From: Moorena sp. SIOASIH
Lineage (GTDB): Bacteria; Cyanobacteriota; Cyanobacteriia; Cyanobacteriales; Coleofasciculaceae
DNA: 64,000 bases
Assembly (NCBI RefSeq): GCF_010671925.1
Contig: NZ_JAAHIH010000001.1
Coordinates: forward strand, 869,053 to 933,052
Reading direction: 5' to 3'
Position numbers and translations under genes: made by a program. Positions 7,205 through 59,680 of this stretch are shown here, piece after piece. The notes under the pieces are model-generated. The model made no database searches and was not told the DNA's origin. It worked only from the letters and a program-made list of their open reading frames with translations. The first letter of the stretch is position 1; each line of letters starts with the position of its first letter.

Positions 7205-7830
7205 GGCGTTGACACTCCCCGGTCTAAAGACACGGGGATTCTTTGTTCGCAGACTCGACTTGCTCAACCAGGCCGGAACCAGGAAAAGTAGAGGTCAAAT
7301 CTCCCAAAGCGTTTGGATTTAAGATCCAGGTTCCGACGTGCCCCGCCGTACCCAAGGCTTGTTTAAGGATGTTGTTCGCGTAGCGTCGGCTTCGCCGAAT
7401 CGCGGCGTTATGATCTCTATCCAATTGACATCCACACTTACAGGCGTGAGTTCTAGTTGATAGGGATTTTTTAACAACTTCGCCACAATTAGAGCAATTT
7501 TGGCTTGTATAGGCAGGATTAACTGCAATAGTTATCTTGCCAAACTTGGTGCCAAAGTGCTCCATCCATTTCCTAAATTGATACCAACCTGCATCGTTAA
7601 TAGACTTAGCAAGACAATGGTTCTTTGCCAGATTCTTGACTCTCAAATCTTGCCTTACGGCACGCTTCGCGAACGTAAGCGATCAAGTCGTTAGACCGAA
7701 CTACGCAACGCGCCAGTCTCTTGGCGTGTTCTATGCGCTTCGCGCAGGCTACGCCAACACGTTGCCTACTTATTTTGAGATGTTGTCTCCCTAATCTATT
7801 AACCGCTTTCTTGCGAATTGATGTTTTTTG
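7205..7830 (-). pseudogene. tnpB: 5'-truncated tnpB (IS200/IS605-family) remnant; intact ORF portion 7224..7646
   Basis: The 140-aa ORF is ~80% identical to the C-terminal RuvC-III/Zn-finger part of the full-length TnpB at 58403..59599. Nucleotide similarity continues out of frame to ~7830. A right-end-type hairpin sits at 7215-7243. Confidence 0.7.
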
Positions 7831-8089
7831 CCTTTTGCCTTGAACTCCAAAATGATCATCAGTTTCGACCTCAACTGCTCTCTATTTTATTCTACAACAC
7901 TCAAACTAAAATTCCTGATTTCCCTAAAATATTTTTCTCACGGCGGCTTTAGCCGCTGTGAGCCTTCATCCTCGGTCTAAAGACACGATGTTTTCGGCTT
8001 TTTGGATTTTTATAATGTTTTTTATAATGTTATTTCTATTTTAAAGGTATTCCAGAGAAGTTAGTATATTGACCATCTCTCTCTGTTAA

Positions 8090-9039: not shown

Positions 9040-9292
9040 GAGTTTTCAGATTGGTCAAGCTCACCTCTGTTGGTGCGCTTTCACGCTTGTCGGGAAACCC
9101 GACCGGGGTCGCACCGCAAATGGTAAACGCTATCAAGGTCACGATACCCTGGGGTGCTCGCCAGCTCCAGGCTCTATCGCTTCTGATTAAACAGGTGATG
9201 AGTTAATTTAGTGAAGCCAGTGTCAGAAGCCTAACAAGCTTTGATAGCCGAGCGAGGCACACTTTACCCTCAACGGGAGTAAACACAAAACC
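9040..9292 (+). ncRNA. putative IscB omega-RNA scaffold (guide expected at the 5' side)
   Basis: In IscB elements the omega-RNA is encoded directly 5' of iscB. This region has nested stems (9072-9115 GGTGCGCTTTC...TCGGGaaaCCCGA...GGGTCGCACC). The 81-aa ORF 8945..9190 is probably non-coding. Confidence 0.4.
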
Positions 9293-10582
9293 ATGTGTAA
9301 TTACGTCTTTGTTTTAGATGCAAGCCATAAACCCCTCAACCCCTGCCGTCCCGTTACCGCCAGGAAGCTGTTGACGGCTGGGAAGGCGGCTGTATATCGC
9401 CGTTACCCTTTCACAATCATCTTGAAAAAGCAGGTAGACGGCTCAGCTAAACCGATGTCCCTCAAGATCGATCCTGGCTCCAAGATTACTGGTCTAGCTG
9501 TTGTGTACAGTAATCAGGTGGTGTGGTCTGCTGAAATCGAACATCGTGGCTCCAAAATCAAATCAGCTCTCGACTATCGTCGAGGGGTTCGCCGTTCCCG
9601 TAGAAAGAGGAAATGCCGTTACCGAAAGCCACGTTTCAACAACCGGAAACGCCCAGAAGGTTGGTTGGCTCCGAGCCTACAACACAGAGTGGCAACCACT
9701 ATGACCTGGGTGCTGAGATTGATGAAACTCACCGCCATTGGTTCGATATCCCAGGAGCTAGTCCGCTTTGATACCCAAAAGCTCCAAAATCCGGAAATAT
9801 CTGGCATAGAGTATCAACAGGGGGAGCTGATGGGCTATGAAGTGCGGGAGTACTTGTATCAGAAATGGGGTCGCCAATGTGTCTACTGTGGGGCGAAGTC
9901 TGTCAAGCTAGAGGTGGAACACATAATCCCAAAATCCAAGGGGGGAACGAATCGTGTCAATAACCTCACCCTAGCCTGCCATCGGTGTAATCAGGCCAAA
10001 GGAAATCTTGATGCTCGGGATTTTTTATCGGGGAAACCCCATGTCCTAAAGCGGATTTTAGGTAGAGCAAAGCAACCACTATTAGATGCGGCGGCGGTCA
10101 ACTCCACCCGTTGGCAACTTTACCTTTGCTTGAAAGAAACTGGATTGTCCGTAGCAGTAGGAACTGGTGCCAGAACCAAGTACAACCGTATCAAGCTGGG
10201 ATTACCCAAGGGTCATTGGGTGGATGCCGCCTGTGTCGGGGAAGTGGCCACATTGAAGATTGTAACCAGACAGCCTCTTTTAATCAAAGCGATGGGTCAC
10301 GGTTGTCGTCAGGTAATACAGATGGACAAATACGGCTTTCCTCGCAAAGGGTACAAACCCAAGCATCCTGTGAAGGGATGGAAAACCGGGGATATCGTTA
10401 ATGTGGTAGCTGGGAAGAATGCTGGATTAAAAGGGGTTCGCATCAAGACCGTCAGAGCCAAAGGAAATTTTGATCTAATCGGGGCTGATCACGGTGTCTC
10501 CAAGAAGGTCAACAGCGCATCTCGCAACTACATTCAATGTGTCCATCGTCAGGATGGGTATTATTATAGTTTTGCTAAATGA
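9293..10582 (+). CDS. iscB: IscB, OMEGA RNA-guided nuclease (Cas9 ancestor; RuvC split by HNH)
   Basis: PLMP-like N-terminus (KPLNPC), RuvC-I IDPGSKITGLAV, Arg-rich bridge helix RRGVRRSRRKRKCRYRKPR, HNH CVYCG...EVEHIIPKSKGG...NLTLACHRCNQAKGN, RuvC-III GHWVDAACVG, and a C-terminal TI-like domain. 429 aa. Confidence 0.85.
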   Translation: MCNYVFVLDASHKPLNPCRPVTARKLLTAGKAAVYRRYPFTIILKKQVDGSAKPMSLKIDPGSKITGLAVVYSNQVVWSAEIEHRGSKIKSALDYRRGVRRSRRKRKCRYRKPRFNNRKRPEGWLAPSLQHRVATTMTWVLRLMKLTAIGSISQELVRFDTQKLQNPEISGIEYQQGELMGYEVREYLYQKWGRQCVYCGAKSVKLEVEHIIPKSKGGTNRVNNLTLACHRCNQAKGNLDARDFLSGKPHVLKRILGRAKQPLLDAAAVNSTRWQLYLCLKETGLSVAVGTGARTKYNRIKLGLPKGHWVDAACVGEVATLKIVTRQPLLIKAMGHGCRQVIQMDKYGFPRKGYKPKHPVKGWKTGDIVNVVAGKNAGLKGVRIKTVRAKGNFDLIGADHGVSKKVNSASRNYIQCVHRQDGYYYSFAK

Positions 10583-23855: not shown

Positions 23856-24162
23856 GGGAATAGGGAGTAGGGAGTAGGGAGTAGGGAGTAGGGATAATAA
23901 AATGGACTGTAGCTTAGGTATCAGCATTTCGGGTATCAGCGTTTTGAGAGTTTTCCGTGAATACTCATGTACTAGCGACTTTCAGTTGATATGATCTCAC
24001 GATAATTACCCTTAATAAAAATTTCCCCATCTCCCCATCTCCCTATCTCCCCACACCTCCCAGCCTCCCTACCCTCCCCGCGCCTCCTTAATTATGGGTA
24101 TTCAACCAGACTTGAGATAAGTCTAAATATCGGTAAGGATTGACCCTAGTACGGCACGACGG

Positions 24163-24696
24163 AATTGACACTCCCCGTCTTAAAAGAACGGGGATTCCCA
24201 GATCTACGATCGGCCTTAAACCTTTGTGTCTTAATCTTTGACGCCGCCAAGAACTAAGCAGTATCTAAACCTGAATCCCGTCAAGACCAAGATTCTAGTT
24301 TAGTTCACAAAAGACCCAGCGGGCTAATCTCCTTGGGCGTTTAGTAACAAGCTTGAGAAGTGCCTTATGAAGTCCGTTTCTCCTCTGCTTCACCTGGTTC
24401 CGGCGTGCCCCGCCGTACCGTTTTATTCTCAAACTGTGATGCAGCTGGGTTCACACACCGATTGGTAGTCGTTCGCGTAGCGTGGCCTACGGCCAATGAT
24501 TGGGTTTTTAAGGAGGACTTTCCCTACCCTCCGGGCATTACTACTTTAAGGTCGAGCAGTGGCGGGTCTCTGACCCGGTTGCGCTTCGGTTTTTCAGCCT
24601 GTACCCTTTAACCATATTATACCAAATGAAATTGAAAAGTGCCAACTAAAAGCCGTCCTAGAAGGACGGGGTTTTAGACCCAAAGTTTTTGATAAA
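24163..24696. mobile_element. ORF-less mini derivative (PATE/MITE-like) of the tnpB-only IS200/IS605 element seen at 58354-59680
   Basis: Carries the same right-end hairpin (24171-24197 CTCCCCGTCTTAAAAGAACGGGGATTC) and left-end hairpin (24652-24671 GCCGTCCTAGAAGGACGGGG + TTTTAGACCCAAAGTTTTTG) as the full element. Internal remnant of the tnpB 3' end (GGTTCCGGCGTGCCCCGCCGTACC). Confidence 0.65.
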
Positions 24697-24702
24697 GATA
24701 CT

Positions 24703-24890
24703 GTAAGCATTCAGCGGTCAGCCGTCAGCCGTCAGCTTTCTGTGGTCAGCCGTCAGCTTATTTTATTCAAAAACTGTTCCCCTAGCGTGGCCAAGAGCTT
24801 ACCGTGGCCATAGGCCAAGGCCAAGCGTGTGCGTAGCGCATAACCTGAGAGCTAAGAGCTGATAGCTGAATGCTGATAGCTGAATGCTTA
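24703..24890. mobile_element. MITE-like element with terminal inverted repeats GTAAGCATTCAGC...GCTGAATGCTTAC
   Basis: TIRs read directly. Internal GTCAGCC heptamers and a conserved TTATTTTATTCAAAAACTGTTCCCCTAGCGTGGCC block. Confidence 0.7.
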
Positions 24891-25019
24891 CAAGATACTA
24901 TTGAAAAAAGCGAAAGGCTTATATAATAATAATTCTGCTCAGAGCTGATAGTTAAGGGCTGATCGCCCGTCCGCTGAGGGCTGACAGTAGAATCTATTGC
25001 GAAAATCCTTGACTACTAC

Positions 25020-51439: not shown

Positions 51440-52870
51440 ACTACCCCGGCCTACTTCGTTGTTCGCGAAGCGTGGCCTACGGCCAGGCCGGGGCTTCCAG
51501 CTTCACGGAAGAACGCCTTAGCTTAGACGGGCGTCCTCGCTTTGGTCTTACTTCTTCGACCCTGGCGTTGACCTCCCCCGTCCCAGAGGAGGATAGCATT
51601 CTGATCCCTTCTGCCCTAATATTCTTGGCCGCATTACCGTCTCTATCGTGGTGAGTTCCGCAACTTGGACAAACCCAAGTCCTTACATCTAGCGGCAACT
51701 CCTTGATACGGTAATGACAACTAGAGCAGGTCTTAGAGCTGGGGAACCACCGGTTTATTTCTACTAAAACTTTCCCTTCTTTTTCGCATTTATAGGAAAG
51801 GAAGTTTACAAAGGTTCCCCAGCCTAGATCAGAAATTGCTTTAGCTAGTTTGTGGTTACGAACCATGCCCTTGACGTTTAGGTTTTCGACTACCACTACC
51901 TGATTCTGGTCTACAATTTTTCTAGATAGTTTGTGCAGGTAGTCTTGGCGGACATTTCCAATACGTTCATATACCTTAGCTACAATCTTACGAGCCTTTT
52001 TGCGTCCACTGCTGCCCTTCTTCTTTCGGGCTGCAATGCGTTGTTTTTTGGCTAGTTTTTTCTCGGATCTATCTATAGGCTTGGGATTGCCAAATTTAGA
52101 GGTCTTTTCGCCGTCATAGGTAATAGCAAAATCCTTGATACCCAAATCAATCCCTATCACCTTTCCCTTCGTTGATGGCTTTACACTATCGGATTCGTAT
52201 TCCATCAAAACAGAAGCGTAATATTTGCCAGAAGGTGCTTTGCTGACTGTTACAGTTTTTATTTCCCCATCTAGTGGTTGATGAATTACAGCCTTGACAA
52301 CTCCTAATTTTCCAGGGAACTTTAGGCAATCACCCACCTGTTTAACATTTTGGGGATACTGAATTGATTGGCGATGATGATACGATTTAAATTTGGGATA
52401 TTTAGCTCTACCTTGGCCTATTGGCCACGCTACGCGAACAAAAAAGTTTTGATATGCACGACTAAGGTTTAGACTCACAGATTGCCAGACCTGGGAGTAA
52501 CAATCCTTTAGCCATTCAGTCTCCTTTTCTTTCTTGAGTTTTGGAAGCATAGAGTTGAGTGCAGATTGTTTCAAGCCTTTGCCAGTTTCCTTGTAAGTTT
52601 CTATGCACTGATTCAAGGCATAGTTCCACCACCAGCGAGCACATCCAAAGTGCTGGGCTAGTATCATTACTTGTTCTTGTGTGGGATAGATTCTGACTTT
52701 GACGGCTTTATGTTTCACTGCACTCAACCTTTTTATCGACCTGGATTACTATTATATAAGTTTTGTATTAAGACGTCAAGGTATAAAGTCAATTTTCTGG
52801 CTCGCTATCCATCCCCAACCTACTTGGCCGTAGGCCACGCTACGCGAACGTAGAGGTTGGGGAATTCCGC
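51440..52870. mobile_element. tnpB-only IS200/IS605-family element (IS1341-like)
   Basis: Terminal hairpins: RE 51445-51492 CCCCGGCCT...AGGCCGGGG and LE 52815-52862 CCAACCTAC...GTAGAGGTTGG. Both ends carry the inverted motif CGCGAAGCGTGGCCTACGGCC. Confidence 0.7.
51477..52727 (-). CDS. tnpB: TnpB (OMEGA RNA-guided RuvC-like nuclease, OrfB_IS605 family)
   Basis: N-terminal VRIYPTQEQ...ARWWWNYAL, RuvC triad (IGIDLGIKDF, ENLNVKGM, DRDGNAAKNI), and Zn ribbon CSSC...CPSCG. Confidence 0.85.
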   Translation of the reverse strand: MSAVKHKAVKVRIYPTQEQVMILAQHFGCARWWWNYALNQCIETYKETGKGLKQSALNSMLPKLKKEKETEWLKDCYSQVWQSVSLNLSRAYQNFFVRVAWPIGQGRAKYPKFKSYHHRQSIQYPQNVKQVGDCLKFPGKLGVVKAVIHQPLDGEIKTVTVSKAPSGKYYASVLMEYESDSVKPSTKGKVIGIDLGIKDFAITYDGEKTSKFGNPKPIDRSEKKLAKKQRIAARKKKGSSGRKKARKIVAKVYERIGNVRQDYLHKLSRKIVDQNQVVVVENLNVKGMVRNHKLAKAISDLGWGTFVNFLSYKCEKEGKVLVEINRWFPSSKTCSSCHYRIKELPLDVRTWVCPSCGTHHDRDGNAAKNIRAEGIRMLSSSGTGEVNARVEEVRPKRGRPSKLRRSSVKLEAPAWP

Positions 52871-58329: not shown

Positions 58330-58520
58330 TTTTGCTTATTCCCACCCTCGGGATTTTTGACACTCCCCGTCCTAGAAGAACGGGGATTCTTTAATCAACG
58401 AGTCAGCGTGGCTCTTCCAGACCGGAATCAGGAAGAGTAGAGGCTGATTCTCCTAAAGCGTTCGGATCTATGATCCAGGTTCCGGTATGCCCTACCGTAC
58501 CCAAGGCTCTTTTTAGAATA
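58330..58520 (-). ncRNA. putative TnpB omega-RNA (reRNA) overlapping the tnpB 3' end and RE hairpin
   Basis: By analogy to characterised TnpB systems. The conserved 3'-end hairpin is shared by all three copies. Confidence 0.3.
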
Positions 58521-59680
58521 TTAATGGCTGCATTATGGTCGCGATCCAACACACACCCACACGAGCAAGTATGCGTTCTGGTTGATAGCGATTTTTTGAC
58601 AACTTCACCACATTTTGAACAGTTCTGACTAGTATAAGCAGGGTTAACGGCTATTGTTTGCCTGCCAAACTTTTGTCCAAAATATTCCAGCCATTTTCTA
58701 AATTGATACCAACCTGCATCATTAATAGACTTGGCAAGACAATGATTTTTTACCAAATTTTTTACCCTCAAGTCTTCGTAAGCGACCACGTCGTTAGAGT
58801 GGATTACGCAGCGCGCCAGTCTCTTGGCGTGCTCTTCACGCTGCCTACTTATCTTAAGGTGTGTTCTACCTAGTCTATTAATGGCTTTTTTGCGATTGAC
58901 TGAGCCTTTCTTTTTGCGAAAAACCCGACGTTGATAAAACTTAAGCAGTTTCTCACCCTTACGATAAAACCTTGGATTTGTCTCTACACCTCCCTTGGAG
59001 TCGGTATAAAACTCCTTAAGTCCAACGTCTAAACCAACGTTGGTGTGCGAAGGCTCTAAAGGTTTGCTAATATCAACTTTGATACAAAACTGAACATAAT
59101 AGCCATCCGCTCGGCGCACTAATCTAACTCGTTTTATCAGCGTCTGATCGTAACGCCATAACTCCCAGGTTCCTTTTAGTTTTAGTTTCCCAATACCTTT
59201 TTTGTCTAAAAAATTTATTGATTTAGTATCGGGGGATAGTTTCCAGCCAGATGTTTTATACTCAACTGACCTAGAAAACTTCTTAAACTTAGGATATCCC
59301 TTTTTACCAGGGACTTGTTTTTTACATTTATCGTAAAATCTAGAAATTGAGTTGTAAGCTCTTTCAACTGAAGCTTGACAGGCATGAGAATTTAAGGCTT
59401 TAACAAAGGGATACTCAGACCTGAGCCACGTATTATGACGATACAAGTCTTTTTGTCCTATACCTTTATTGTCCATCCAGTAACGGATGCACTTGTTCCG
59501 AACAAACTGACCGGTGCGAATCGCCTCATCAATCGCAGCATATTGAGTTTTATTCCCTTTGACCTTAAATTCTAAGACTATCATTTTGACGTGGAACAAC
59601 TCTACGTAATATTATAGCACGAAAAAAATAAAGCCGTCCTTCTAGGACGGGGCTTGAGGCCCAAATTTTTGGTCAACCAC
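58354..59680. mobile_element. tnpB-only IS200/IS605-family element, full length
   Basis: RE hairpin 58362-58389 (CTCCCCGTCCTAGAAGAACGGGGATTC) and LE hairpin 59632-59652 (GCCGTCCTTCTAGGACGGGGC). Same ends as the mini element at 24163-24696 and the truncated copy at 7205. Confidence 0.7.
58403..59599 (-). CDS. tnpB: TnpB (RuvC-like RNA-guided nuclease)
   Basis: RuvC triad VGLDVGLKEF / EDLRVKNL / DRDHNAAINI, and Zn finger CSKCG...CSCGC. Confidence 0.85.
   Translation of the reverse strand: MFHVKMIVLEFKVKGNKTQYAAIDEAIRTGQFVRNKCIRYWMDNKGIGQKDLYRHNTWLRSEYPFVKALNSHACQASVERAYNSISRFYDKCKKQVPGKKGYPKFKKFSRSVEYKTSGWKLSPDTKSINFLDKKGIGKLKLKGTWELWRYDQTLIKRVRLVRRADGYYVQFCIKVDISKPLEPSHTNVGLDVGLKEFYTDSKGGVETNPRFYRKGEKLLKFYQRRVFRKKKGSVNRKKAINRLGRTHLKISRQREEHAKRLARCVIHSNDVVAYEDLRVKNLVKNHCLAKSINDAGWYQFRKWLEYFGQKFGRQTIAVNPAYTSQNCSKCGEVVKKSLSTRTHTCSCGCVLDRDHNAAINILKRALGTVGHTGTWIIDPNALGESASTLPDSGLEEPR

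Follow-up and report, generated by a model that had tools for sequence, protein, structure and literature searches.

An ORF-less IS200/IS605-type element of Moorena with a predicted promoter and an omegaRNA-like structured RNA

A 64,000-nucleotide stretch of Moorena sp. SIOASIH DNA (contig NZ_JAAHIH010000001.1, positions 869,053 to 933,052), here called the window, contains a short segment without an open reading frame (ORF) whose two ends carry hairpins resembling those of a resident tnpB insertion sequence (IS) at 58354-59680. The segment raises the question of whether it is what is left of that IS after loss of its ORF, as the original prediction held, or an element with a function and a history of its own. 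The prediction had also suggested that the segment could be mobilized in trans and could express an RNA that guides TnpB. We addressed these points by comparing the locus with orthologous regions lacking the insertion, with the tnpB elements of the window, and with related copies in other Moorena genomes.

Limits, insertion, and origin of the mini element

The limits of the mini element were fixed by empty sites. Homologues of the flanking genes, among which a 307-amino-acid ORF shows 94% identity to a Moorena producens protein, led to an orthologous intergenic region without the mini element in four other Moorena contigs (L142, L156, L157, and L158). These contigs align to the window through position 24164 and then again from 24892. 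On the RNA strand, the empty site reads ...GTATCTTTAT|TTCCGTGGTGCC... in all four contigs, or ...TTTAT|TTCCGT... in short form, and the window holds 527 bp (24165-24691, functional strand minus) exactly between the two halves, with no target duplication. The insertion point lies immediately 3' of TTAT. Such a precise insertion, directly 3' of this tetranucleotide and free of duplication, is a hallmark of IS200/IS605 transposition. The mini element is absent from the four related contigs and was thus inserted recently. These observations bear out the suggestion that such an element can be mobilized.

Read on the minus strand, the locus consists of the flank ...GTATCTTTAT, the left end (LE), a predicted promoter, about 440 nt without an ORF, the right end (RE), and the flank TTCCGTCGTGCC... 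(Table 1). Both subterminal hairpins, at 24653-24669 in the LE and at 24173-24193 in the RE, are on the same strand, and there are no terminal inverted repeats. The LE has the order CAAAAACTTTGGGTCT-AAAA-CCCCGTCCTTCTAGGACGG-CTTTTAG, in which the guide tetranucleotide AAAA occupies 24672-24675; by score, its hairpin and T-run are also terminator-like. The end hairpins, the lack of an ORF, and the precise insertion without duplication identify the mini element as a non-autonomous member of the IS200/IS605 family (palindrome-associated transposable element, PATE), the class to which it had been tentatively assigned, with true limits close to those first proposed. Classification as a classical MITE was rejected, since no duplication is found at the junctions and the ends are not inverted repeats. 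Relative to the empty-site contigs the window carries a second insertion, an unrelated 189-bp MITE at 24703-24891, 3 bp beyond the mini element, which has 13-bp terminal inverted repeats and is flanked by an 8-bp duplication, AAGATACT.

Table 1. Features of the mini element and its candidate partner (window coordinates)
Feature	Coordinates	Strand	Description and basis
Whole mini element	24165..24691	-	Non-autonomous IS200/IS605-type element (PATE); empty sites in four Moorena contigs
Target/TAM-side flank TTTAT	24692..24696	-	Target tetranucleotide TTAT directly 5' of the LE; empty-site comparison
Left end	24646..24691	-	CAAAAACTTTGGGTCT, then AAAA, hairpin CCGTCC-TTCTA-GGACGG, CTTTT
Sigma70-type promoter (predicted)	24616..24645	-	TTGGCA, 18-nt spacer, TG-n-TATAAT
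Conserved structured RNA (predicted)	24165..24605	-	441 nt here, 417 model positions; 3' end is the RE end
5' add-on domain	24422..24605	-	184 nt; without counterpart in tnpB-linked elements
Nested 24-nt dispersed mini-repeat	24472..24495	+	TTCGCGTAGCGTGGCCTACGGCCA (TTCGCGTAGCGTGGCC...GGCCA); terminal loop of a 5'-domain hairpin
OmegaRNA core (predicted)	24165..24421	-	F hairpin, expanded hairpin G, closing helix, three-way junction, RE hairpin, ...GUGUCAA
Right end	24165..24197	-	GAAT, hairpin CCCCGTTCTTTTAAGACGGGG, AGTG, TCAA (cleavage end); 94% identical to 58357-58389
Predicted guide segment	24145..24164	-	TTCCGTCGTGCCGTACTAGG; from omegaRNA architecture, length assumed
Candidate trans partner	58357..59599	-	Intact tnpB (58403-59599/59584) and the omegaRNA of that IS (58357-58503); both end types as in the mini element

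The relation to the resident tnpB elements was examined by blastn of 24100-24760 against the whole window. Three short matches were obtained: the RE hairpin (24165-24197 against 58357-58389; 33 bp, 94%, E = 1e-8), the LE (24649-24689 against 59630-59670; 41 bp, 83%, E = 5.5e-6), and a block at 24393-24419, GGTACGGCGGGGCACGCCGGAACC, that matches 7326-7352 over 27 bp at 93%. This block corresponds to the TnpB C-terminal codons "GTxGHxGT", of which about 12 remain (GTAGHAGT). The rest of 24198-24648 gave no alignment with the element at 58354-59680 or with 7205-7990 by either blastn or nhmmer, and the 27-bp motif lies 218 nt from the RE end in the mini element, farther than in the two tnpB copies (108 and 107 nt). 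A global MAFFT alignment of the mini element with the two tnpB elements proved misleading, as local blastn returned nothing beyond the three short matches. Because only the end hairpins and the 27-bp block are shared, the mini element is no deletion copy of the IS at 58354-59680 but comes from an independent, conserved ORF-less lineage. The similarity first noted at the two ends and at the tnpB 3' remnant is therefore real for the hairpins and the 27-bp motif and does not extend to the interior, and the proposed origin by loss of the tnpB ORF from that IS is not upheld.

The remaining codons nevertheless bear on a broader alternative, in which the mini element would be an inert relic, that is, a decayed internal-deletion remnant of a tnpB IS with at most occasional passive mobilization. 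NAxGD-like coding remnants inside the RNA fit such a relic as well, and the window does contain decayed tnpB copies, at 7209-~7990. The lack of interior similarity to the resident IS and the recent insertion speak against it, and further evidence came from related copies.

A family of ORF-less copies with a conserved RNA

An exact-pattern scan of 185,579 representative genomes with two conserved anchors at long spacing returned 11 loci, found in M. producens 3L (seven loci), M. bouillonii PNG, and two MAGs. Together with the window copy they form an ORF-less family of 12 copies, all from Moorena. The 11 sibling loci align to the window element over ~420-535 nt at 69-79% identity, and none of them contains tnpB inside the element. 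The neighboring genes are different at every sibling locus, and the copies are mostly intergenic. In the alignment of the 12 copies (A2; 78% column identity), conservation begins at the promoter, runs through GGTACAGGCTGAAAAACCG..., and ends exactly at ...GGGGAGTGTCAA (GTGTCAA), beyond which the 3' flanks are unrelated. At least three LE types occur upstream of the promoter, one of which also occurs in the decayed tnpB element, at ~7950-7990. The conserved unit therefore consists of the promoter, the RNA, and the RE.

No conserved ORF and no 3-base periodicity of variation were found among the 12 copies. An antisense open stretch of 71-90 codons, present in most copies, was rejected as a gene, since its frames differ between copies and are interrupted in four, and its substitutions are mostly non-synonymous and without periodicity. 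Searches of metagenomes and IMG/VR with the 18-mer TCCTCYTKAAAAACCCAA gave chance matches only, and no locus from them aligned to the family.

The predicted promoter of the window copy matches 11 of 12 consensus positions and has an extended -10 element, which would place the transcription start at ~24606-24610. Its -35 and -10 elements are in the same register in most sibling copies, typically as TTGACA-17-TATACT. Downstream, RNAalifold predicted a common fold of 105 pairs for the 12 copies, 37 of them with compensatory changes, and an independent count found 96.8% of the cells paired. The number of pairs changed on both sides was 38, compared with 21.6 +/- 2.7 in shuffled alignments (0 of 500 reached 38) and 3-12 in slid controls; the covariation score was 0.316 versus 0.176 after shuffling. 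The 12 copies are paralogues from one genus, and part of this covariation may reflect shared ancestry, an origin against which the slid and shuffled controls argue. In addition, several invariant G-U pairs fit the minus (RNA) strand only. Taken at the level of prediction for both promoter and transcript, the family encodes an RNA of roughly 417-441 nt with a covariation-supported structure.

Insertions within this RNA have a restricted distribution. The nested mini-repeat of the window copy occupies gap columns 135-158 of A2, where no other copy has it, and the same repeat is found at another loop or junction position in three siblings (L003, L006, and L008). This repeat is dispersed, with 11 matches in the window versus 0.18 expected. 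Confinement of its insertions to loops and junctions is the pattern that purifying selection on the fold would leave. Such tolerance in loops only is hard to reconcile with an inert relic, as is the retention by 12 copies at 69-79% identity of a promoter and a 105-pair fold with 38 doubly changed pairs. Conservation furthermore spans 184 nt that come from none of the tnpB elements examined. Considering these results together with the remnant codons, we regard the inert relic as very unlikely.

A further explanation for the fold is that the internal structure serves the single-stranded DNA intermediate of transposition, as a substrate of TnpA, rather than an RNA. IS200/IS605 elements indeed move as single-stranded DNA of the hairpin-bearing strand, and the LE and RE hairpins are DNA signals. 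To our knowledge, however, the known members of the family need only subterminal hairpins and short guide sequences. A promoter conserved in register would have no purpose in single-stranded DNA, and the 3' 257 nt of the structure match a model of the RNA encoded by tnpB-linked elements, as described below. A role confined to the DNA intermediate thus appears highly improbable.

The omegaRNA core and the 5' domain

The canonical omegaRNA was defined from tnpB-linked elements only, namely, the two elements of the window (at 58 kb and 7 kb) and ten cyanobacterial plasmid copies. It begins with hairpin F, located within the GTxGHxGT codons and capped by a GGNCA loop, and an optional hairpin G, followed by an AACGC-GGAGA block, a closing helix whose 3' strand adjoins GAAUCCCC, hairpin M, the RE hairpin, and GUGUCAA. 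On the alignment of these elements (A3), 90% of the cells of this structure are paired, and the covariation score is 0.693 versus 0.209 after shuffling. A covariance model (R1; 146 positions), for which eight tnpB-linked omegaRNAs were the sole input, aligned from its first to its last position (1-146) with 24165-24421 of the mini element at 82.9 bits (E = 1.4e-18). Each of the 11 sibling copies was likewise matched end to end, with 59-86 bits and E values of 1e-12 to 2e-19, while the tnpB-linked copies of the window scored 154 bits (58357-58503) and 149 bits (7209-7354).

In the R1 alignment the mini RNA, whose F hairpin is at 24396-24419, carries inserts of ~43 nt in hairpin G (5 in the model) and ~86 nt in hairpin M; RNAalifold folds the latter into a three-way junction rich in covariation. 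The mini family has also retained the canonical closing helix, in which two independent compensatory changes are seen. The mini RNA, the sibling copy L010, and the canonical omegaRNA matched no family of Rfam 15. On the basis of the covariance model, the 3' 257 nt are assigned to the omegaRNA family of the local TnpB clade, of which they form a full-length and expanded member. Thus, a pairwise DNA comparison of the mini element with the two tnpB elements, proposed as a check of the original prediction, gives a divided result: similarity at the DNA level is nearly limited to the hairpins, and structure-aware homology extends across the 3' 257 nt. Its suggestion of an omegaRNA-type RNA is supported by the match of the tnpB-linked model and by the end of the conserved part at the RE. 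Pairing of the F-hairpin loop (GGNCA) with the NCC(U)CU linker to form a pseudoknot (GGUCA/GACC or GGACA/UCC) was plausible in several elements and was discarded, its register being inconsistent.

The mini RNA and the canonical omegaRNA of this IS1341-group cyanobacterial TnpB clade (58357-58503; L145 on Nostoc PCC 7120 pCC7120alpha) share the F hairpin with its GGNCA loop, AACGC-GGAGA, the closing helix beside GAAUCCCC, the RE hairpin, and the GUGUCAA 3' end. They differ in that the mini RNA lies outside a tnpB ORF: it does not overlap a tnpB 3' end, as tnpB-linked omegaRNAs do, there being no tnpB. They also differ in hairpin G (~43 nt versus 5), in the replacement of M by the ~86-nt three-way junction, and in the preceding 5' domain and predicted promoter of the mini RNA, as opposed to processing from tnpB mRNA. 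The scaffold stops in all 12 copies at GTGTCAA, the transposon right end, and the sequence beyond is locus specific. Because the conserved RNA ends exactly at the RE, a guide would come from local flanking DNA, as had been supposed. The flank that would supply the guide segment of the window copy is unique to the locus and, joined to TTTAT, rebuilds the empty site of the four contigs without the insertion.

The 5' domain has hairpins with compensatory changes (helices 3, 4, 7, and 8 of A2) and near-invariant single-stranded runs. It had no nhmmer match in the tnpB elements compared, no Rfam match, and no coding periodicity, and a systematic scan of the tnpB elements revealed no covarying helix that would join the omegaRNA core to the ORF region. 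RNAalifold pairs the 5' end of the domain with the segment just upstream of the closing helix and also pairs GCCCGGAGGGU of the domain with the invariant linker GCCCUCUGGGU. Since these long-range helices cross the canonical closing helix, their formation would imply a pseudoknot or else a different fold. Double changes are almost absent from them, and they were recovered in only 6-8 of 12 single-sequence ensembles, that of the window copy not among these; one of the helices has a local hairpin alternative. We therefore treat the long-range pairings between domain and core as weakly supported predictions. A long-range helix of the element at 58 kb, ACUAGUCAG/CUGACUCGU, was considered as a counterpart of this 5'-3' pairing and rejected, since it is not kept in relatives and was not recovered by the systematic scan.

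These features raise the alternative that the RNA functions mainly as something other than a TnpB guide, such as a ribozyme, a switch, or a protein-binding module. In variants of this idea, the RNA would process itself in the manner of an IStron, titrate TnpB as an antagonist or decoy, or be a regulatory small RNA for which the transposon is only a vehicle. The conserved 184 nt have no canonical counterpart, combine compensatory changes with near-invariant single-stranded stretches, and are predicted to pair with segments of the omegaRNA across its closing helix, an overlap reminiscent of the antagonism between intron and omegaRNA in IStrons (Zedaveinyte et al., 10.1101/2023.11.20.567912). The omegaRNA core, however, is complete and ends at the RE. 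Neither a group I or group II intron nor any other Rfam family was matched by the window copy or L010, even at E <= 10. The predicted start inside the element and the differing LE types make splicing of a host transcript from the LE boundary unlikely, and the copies are mostly intergenic. We therefore consider a primary function other than guiding TnpB unlikely.

Under the guide RNA interpretation, the 5' domain would most likely stabilize the RNA or aid its folding and its competition for TnpB outside the context of a tnpB mRNA; this is the weakest step of the proposal. A bolder version, which we rate as rather unlikely, is that the family is a selfish, guide-RNA-only transposon whose 5' domain acts as an active switch, a self-processing ribozyme, or a protein-binding platform. 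If so, an ORF-less element could compete for, regulate, or parasitize the TnpB of other transposons, giving an RNA-level analogue of the antagonism between IStron intron and guide that is built on an undescribed RNA fold. The 5' domain, if functional, would in any case be an undescribed structured RNA.

Trans partners, known systems, and target choice

Taken together, the insertion, the conserved unit, and the model match suggest that this PATE-type element is probably a free-standing, promoter-driven omegaRNA gene, mobilized by a Y1 TnpA and served by a TnpB in trans. A TnpA encoded elsewhere would excise and insert the element as single-stranded DNA, choosing TTAT through the LE tetranucleotide. 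The internal promoter would drive an RNA through the RE into the flank, of which ~16-20 nt would serve as the guide, and a TnpB of the matching clade from another IS, for example, that at 58403-59599, could load this RNA in trans. After excision, TnpB would cut the scarless donor joint (TTTAT + TTCCGTCG...), the predicted cleavage target being TTTAT + TTCCGTCGTGCCGTAC, and recombination would restore the element. This scheme follows the TnpB retention model of Meers et al. (bioRxiv 10.1101/2023.03.14.532601).

The IS at 58 kb, which lies 34 kb from the mini element, encodes a matching-clade TnpB that is intact. The protein (398 amino acids) has the Pfam domains OrfB_IS605 and Cas12f1-like TNB, shows the RuvC-type motifs LDVG, YEDL, and DRDHNAA in its translation, and has a counterpart of 100% identity in M. 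producens PAL-8-15-08-1. The last ~46 nt, proximal to the guide, are nearly identical between the omegaRNA of this IS and the mini RNA. Many TnpB paralogues at 74-93% identity occur in Moorena, one of them on an M. bouillonii contig that also carries a family copy (L005). The TnpB at 58 kb is a candidate partner of the mini RNA. Two observations weigh against use of a TnpB in trans. The two expanded hairpins and the 5' domain might interfere with its binding, and the target differs between the mini element (TTAT), the resident tnpB IS (TGAC), and most relatives (TTAC), so that the TAM of the mini element may not suit the candidate TnpB. No tnpA was found in the 64-kb window or at the 11 sibling loci, and no Moorena TnpA was among the best 120 matches listed in a TnpA search; the TnpA family is widespread in cyanobacteria.

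A PATE that carries an omegaRNA is an already known category. PATEs often encode omegaRNAs that need TnpB in trans, and omegaRNA-bearing PATE-like elements were described in Geobacillus stearothermophilus (Meers et al. 2023, 10.1101/2023.03.14.532601). The Moorena family resembles them in its lack of an ORF, its subterminal LE and RE hairpins, its insertion 3' of a tetranucleotide without duplication, the omegaRNA kept at the RE, and a presumed dependence on proteins in trans, namely, TnpA and, to use the guide, TnpB. It is unlike them in having its own strong predicted internal promoter, two large hairpin expansions in the omegaRNA, and the extra structured domain of 184 nt that comes from no tnpB element examined. 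Unlike PATEs that are fresh deletion copies, it is also a diverged, multi-copy family with several LE types. What is new is therefore the existence of a diverged multi-copy lineage with a predicted promoter of its own, a doubly expanded omegaRNA, and a conserved structured domain.

A PATE with IStron ends has been reported, and the second RNA module of IStrons can antagonize the guide (Zedaveinyte et al. 2023, 10.1101/2023.11.20.567912). Like IStrons, which combine a group I intron with an IS605 or IS607 element and an omegaRNA, the Moorena elements unite two RNA modules in one transposon, a structured domain toward the LE and an omegaRNA at the RE, and the two folds possibly compete. In contrast to IStrons, they lack a group I intron signature, have a predicted internal promoter, and are mostly intergenic; an IStron or group I intron identity was rejected, as neither the gathering threshold nor a cutoff of E <= 10 yielded an Rfam intron for the window copy or L010.

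Cas12 descends from TnpB/omegaRNA systems, and the separability of guide and nuclease is central to Cas12 history. The Moorena family offers a natural, recently mobile case in which a guide RNA appears to have become an independent gene, with a predicted promoter and added RNA domains, for which proteins would be supplied in trans. It provides a system for testing the trans-loading of TnpB, the competition between ORF-less and ORF-bearing elements, and the contribution of a large accessory RNA domain to an omegaRNA.

The ends of the mini element were finally compared with those of related elements. Its LE shows 94% identity over 48 nt with that of an autonomous tnpA-tnpB IS from a Chroococcidiopsis plasmid, in which the LE flanks tnpA; the matches obtained among PLSDB plasmids (blastn, distant setting) were LE-like only. 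IS608 of Helicobacter pylori, the mechanistic paradigm of IS200/IS605 transposition, has a TTAC-type target 5' of its LE, a TCAA end, and GAAT 5' of the RE hairpin, and the mini element is similar in these features. It differs from IS608 in having neither tnpA nor tnpB and in its cyanobacterial host. The LE boundaries of sibling copies read TTAT|CAAA (L003) and TTAC|CAAA (L005 and L010), and that of the element at 58 kb reads TGAC|CAAA. Among elements with this LE type, the target and the tetranucleotide just 5' of the LE hairpin covary: AAAA goes with TTAT in the window mini element and L003, AAAG with TTAC in seven elements (L005 and six plasmid tnpB elements), and CAAG with TGAC in the IS at 58 kb, with L010 as the one exception. 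As in IS608, this tetranucleotide would set the choice of target, AAAA directing the mini element to TTAT, and the covariation matches the rule of transposon-directed target choice that Barabas et al. reportedly established for IS608 in 2008. These pairings of tetranucleotide and target form a ready series of naturally retargeted ends.

Omega RNAs of decayed tnpB elements and other nuclease loci

Outside the ORF-less mini element, the window contains further TnpB- and IscB-type loci. The tnpB gene of one decayed element is reduced to its C-terminal ~170 codons. The element contains three nested mini-repeat insertions, and its omegaRNA is intact by the covariance model (149 bits, 7209-7354). 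Its left end is of a different type, consisting of a hairpin, GATGAAG, and a second hairpin, and this type was also found 5′ of several ORF-less copies in Moorena producens 3L. At a locus of M. producens 3L, a canonical-type omegaRNA was preceded by merely a ~40-codon tnpB remnant, and this decayed element lies 1.3 kb from an ORF-less copy.

The window also encodes a TnpB of a second family, which showed 30% identity with the intact TnpB at 58403-59599 and 36% identity with the tnpA-linked TnpB of Chroococcidiopsis pCHRO.01. In addition, a HEARO RNA, an IscB-type omegaRNA, is located directly 5′ of an IscB ORF. The orthologous region in another Moorena contig (L142) likewise starts with an RRXRR/HNH gene.

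Locations of the features in the window and in M. producens 3L (L011)
Feature	Location	Strand	Details
Decayed tnpB element	7209-~7990	-	
HEARO RNA	9089-9267	+	Rfam RF02033, 88.4 bits
IscB ORF	9293-10582	+	429 aa; RRXRR and HNH domains
24-nt mini-repeat	24472-24495; also 7375, 7658, 23421, 24777, 51462, 52423, 52833 and others		
MITE	24703-24891		189 bp; flanking repeats 24695-24702 and 24892-24899
Second-family TnpB	51477-52727	-	416 aa; HTH_OrfB_IS605, OrfB_IS605 and TNB domains
Canonical-type omegaRNA, decayed tnpB element	L011:938-1085	+	124 bits, model of eight tnpB-linked omegaRNAs (R1)

The MITE beside the mini element

The left end of the mini element and the MITE are separated by 3 bp. 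The MITE is bounded by perfect 13-bp terminal inverted repeats (GTAAGCATTCAGC / GCTGAATGCTTAC) and flanked by a target duplication of 8 bp (AAGATACT). Heptamer-type repeats make up its interior, and it is missing at the orthologous site in the four other Moorena contigs compared. Its terminal repeats occurred 13 times in the window versus 0.1 expected, mostly as inward-facing pairs spaced 180 to 220 bp apart (e.g., 2632/2831, 12507/12727, and 23336/23516).

Short repeats within the RNA genes

The dispersed 24-nt mini-repeat, TTCGCGTAGCGTGGCC-nnn-GGCCA, had 11 matches in the window versus 0.18 expected, and it resembles the "small dispersed repeats" of cyanobacteria. It was inserted within the structured RNA gene of the mini element, within the decayed tnpB of the window, and adjoining another tnpB. 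Three sibling copies of the ORF-less family (L003, L006, and L008) carry it at other positions and in the opposite orientation. In the alignment of the 12 ORF-less copies, three siblings (L002, L003, and L005; columns 297-303) have GCGATCGC, the cyanobacterial HIP1 palindrome, in place of the 5′ strand of the omegaRNA core's closing helix, and the helix is disrupted in these three.
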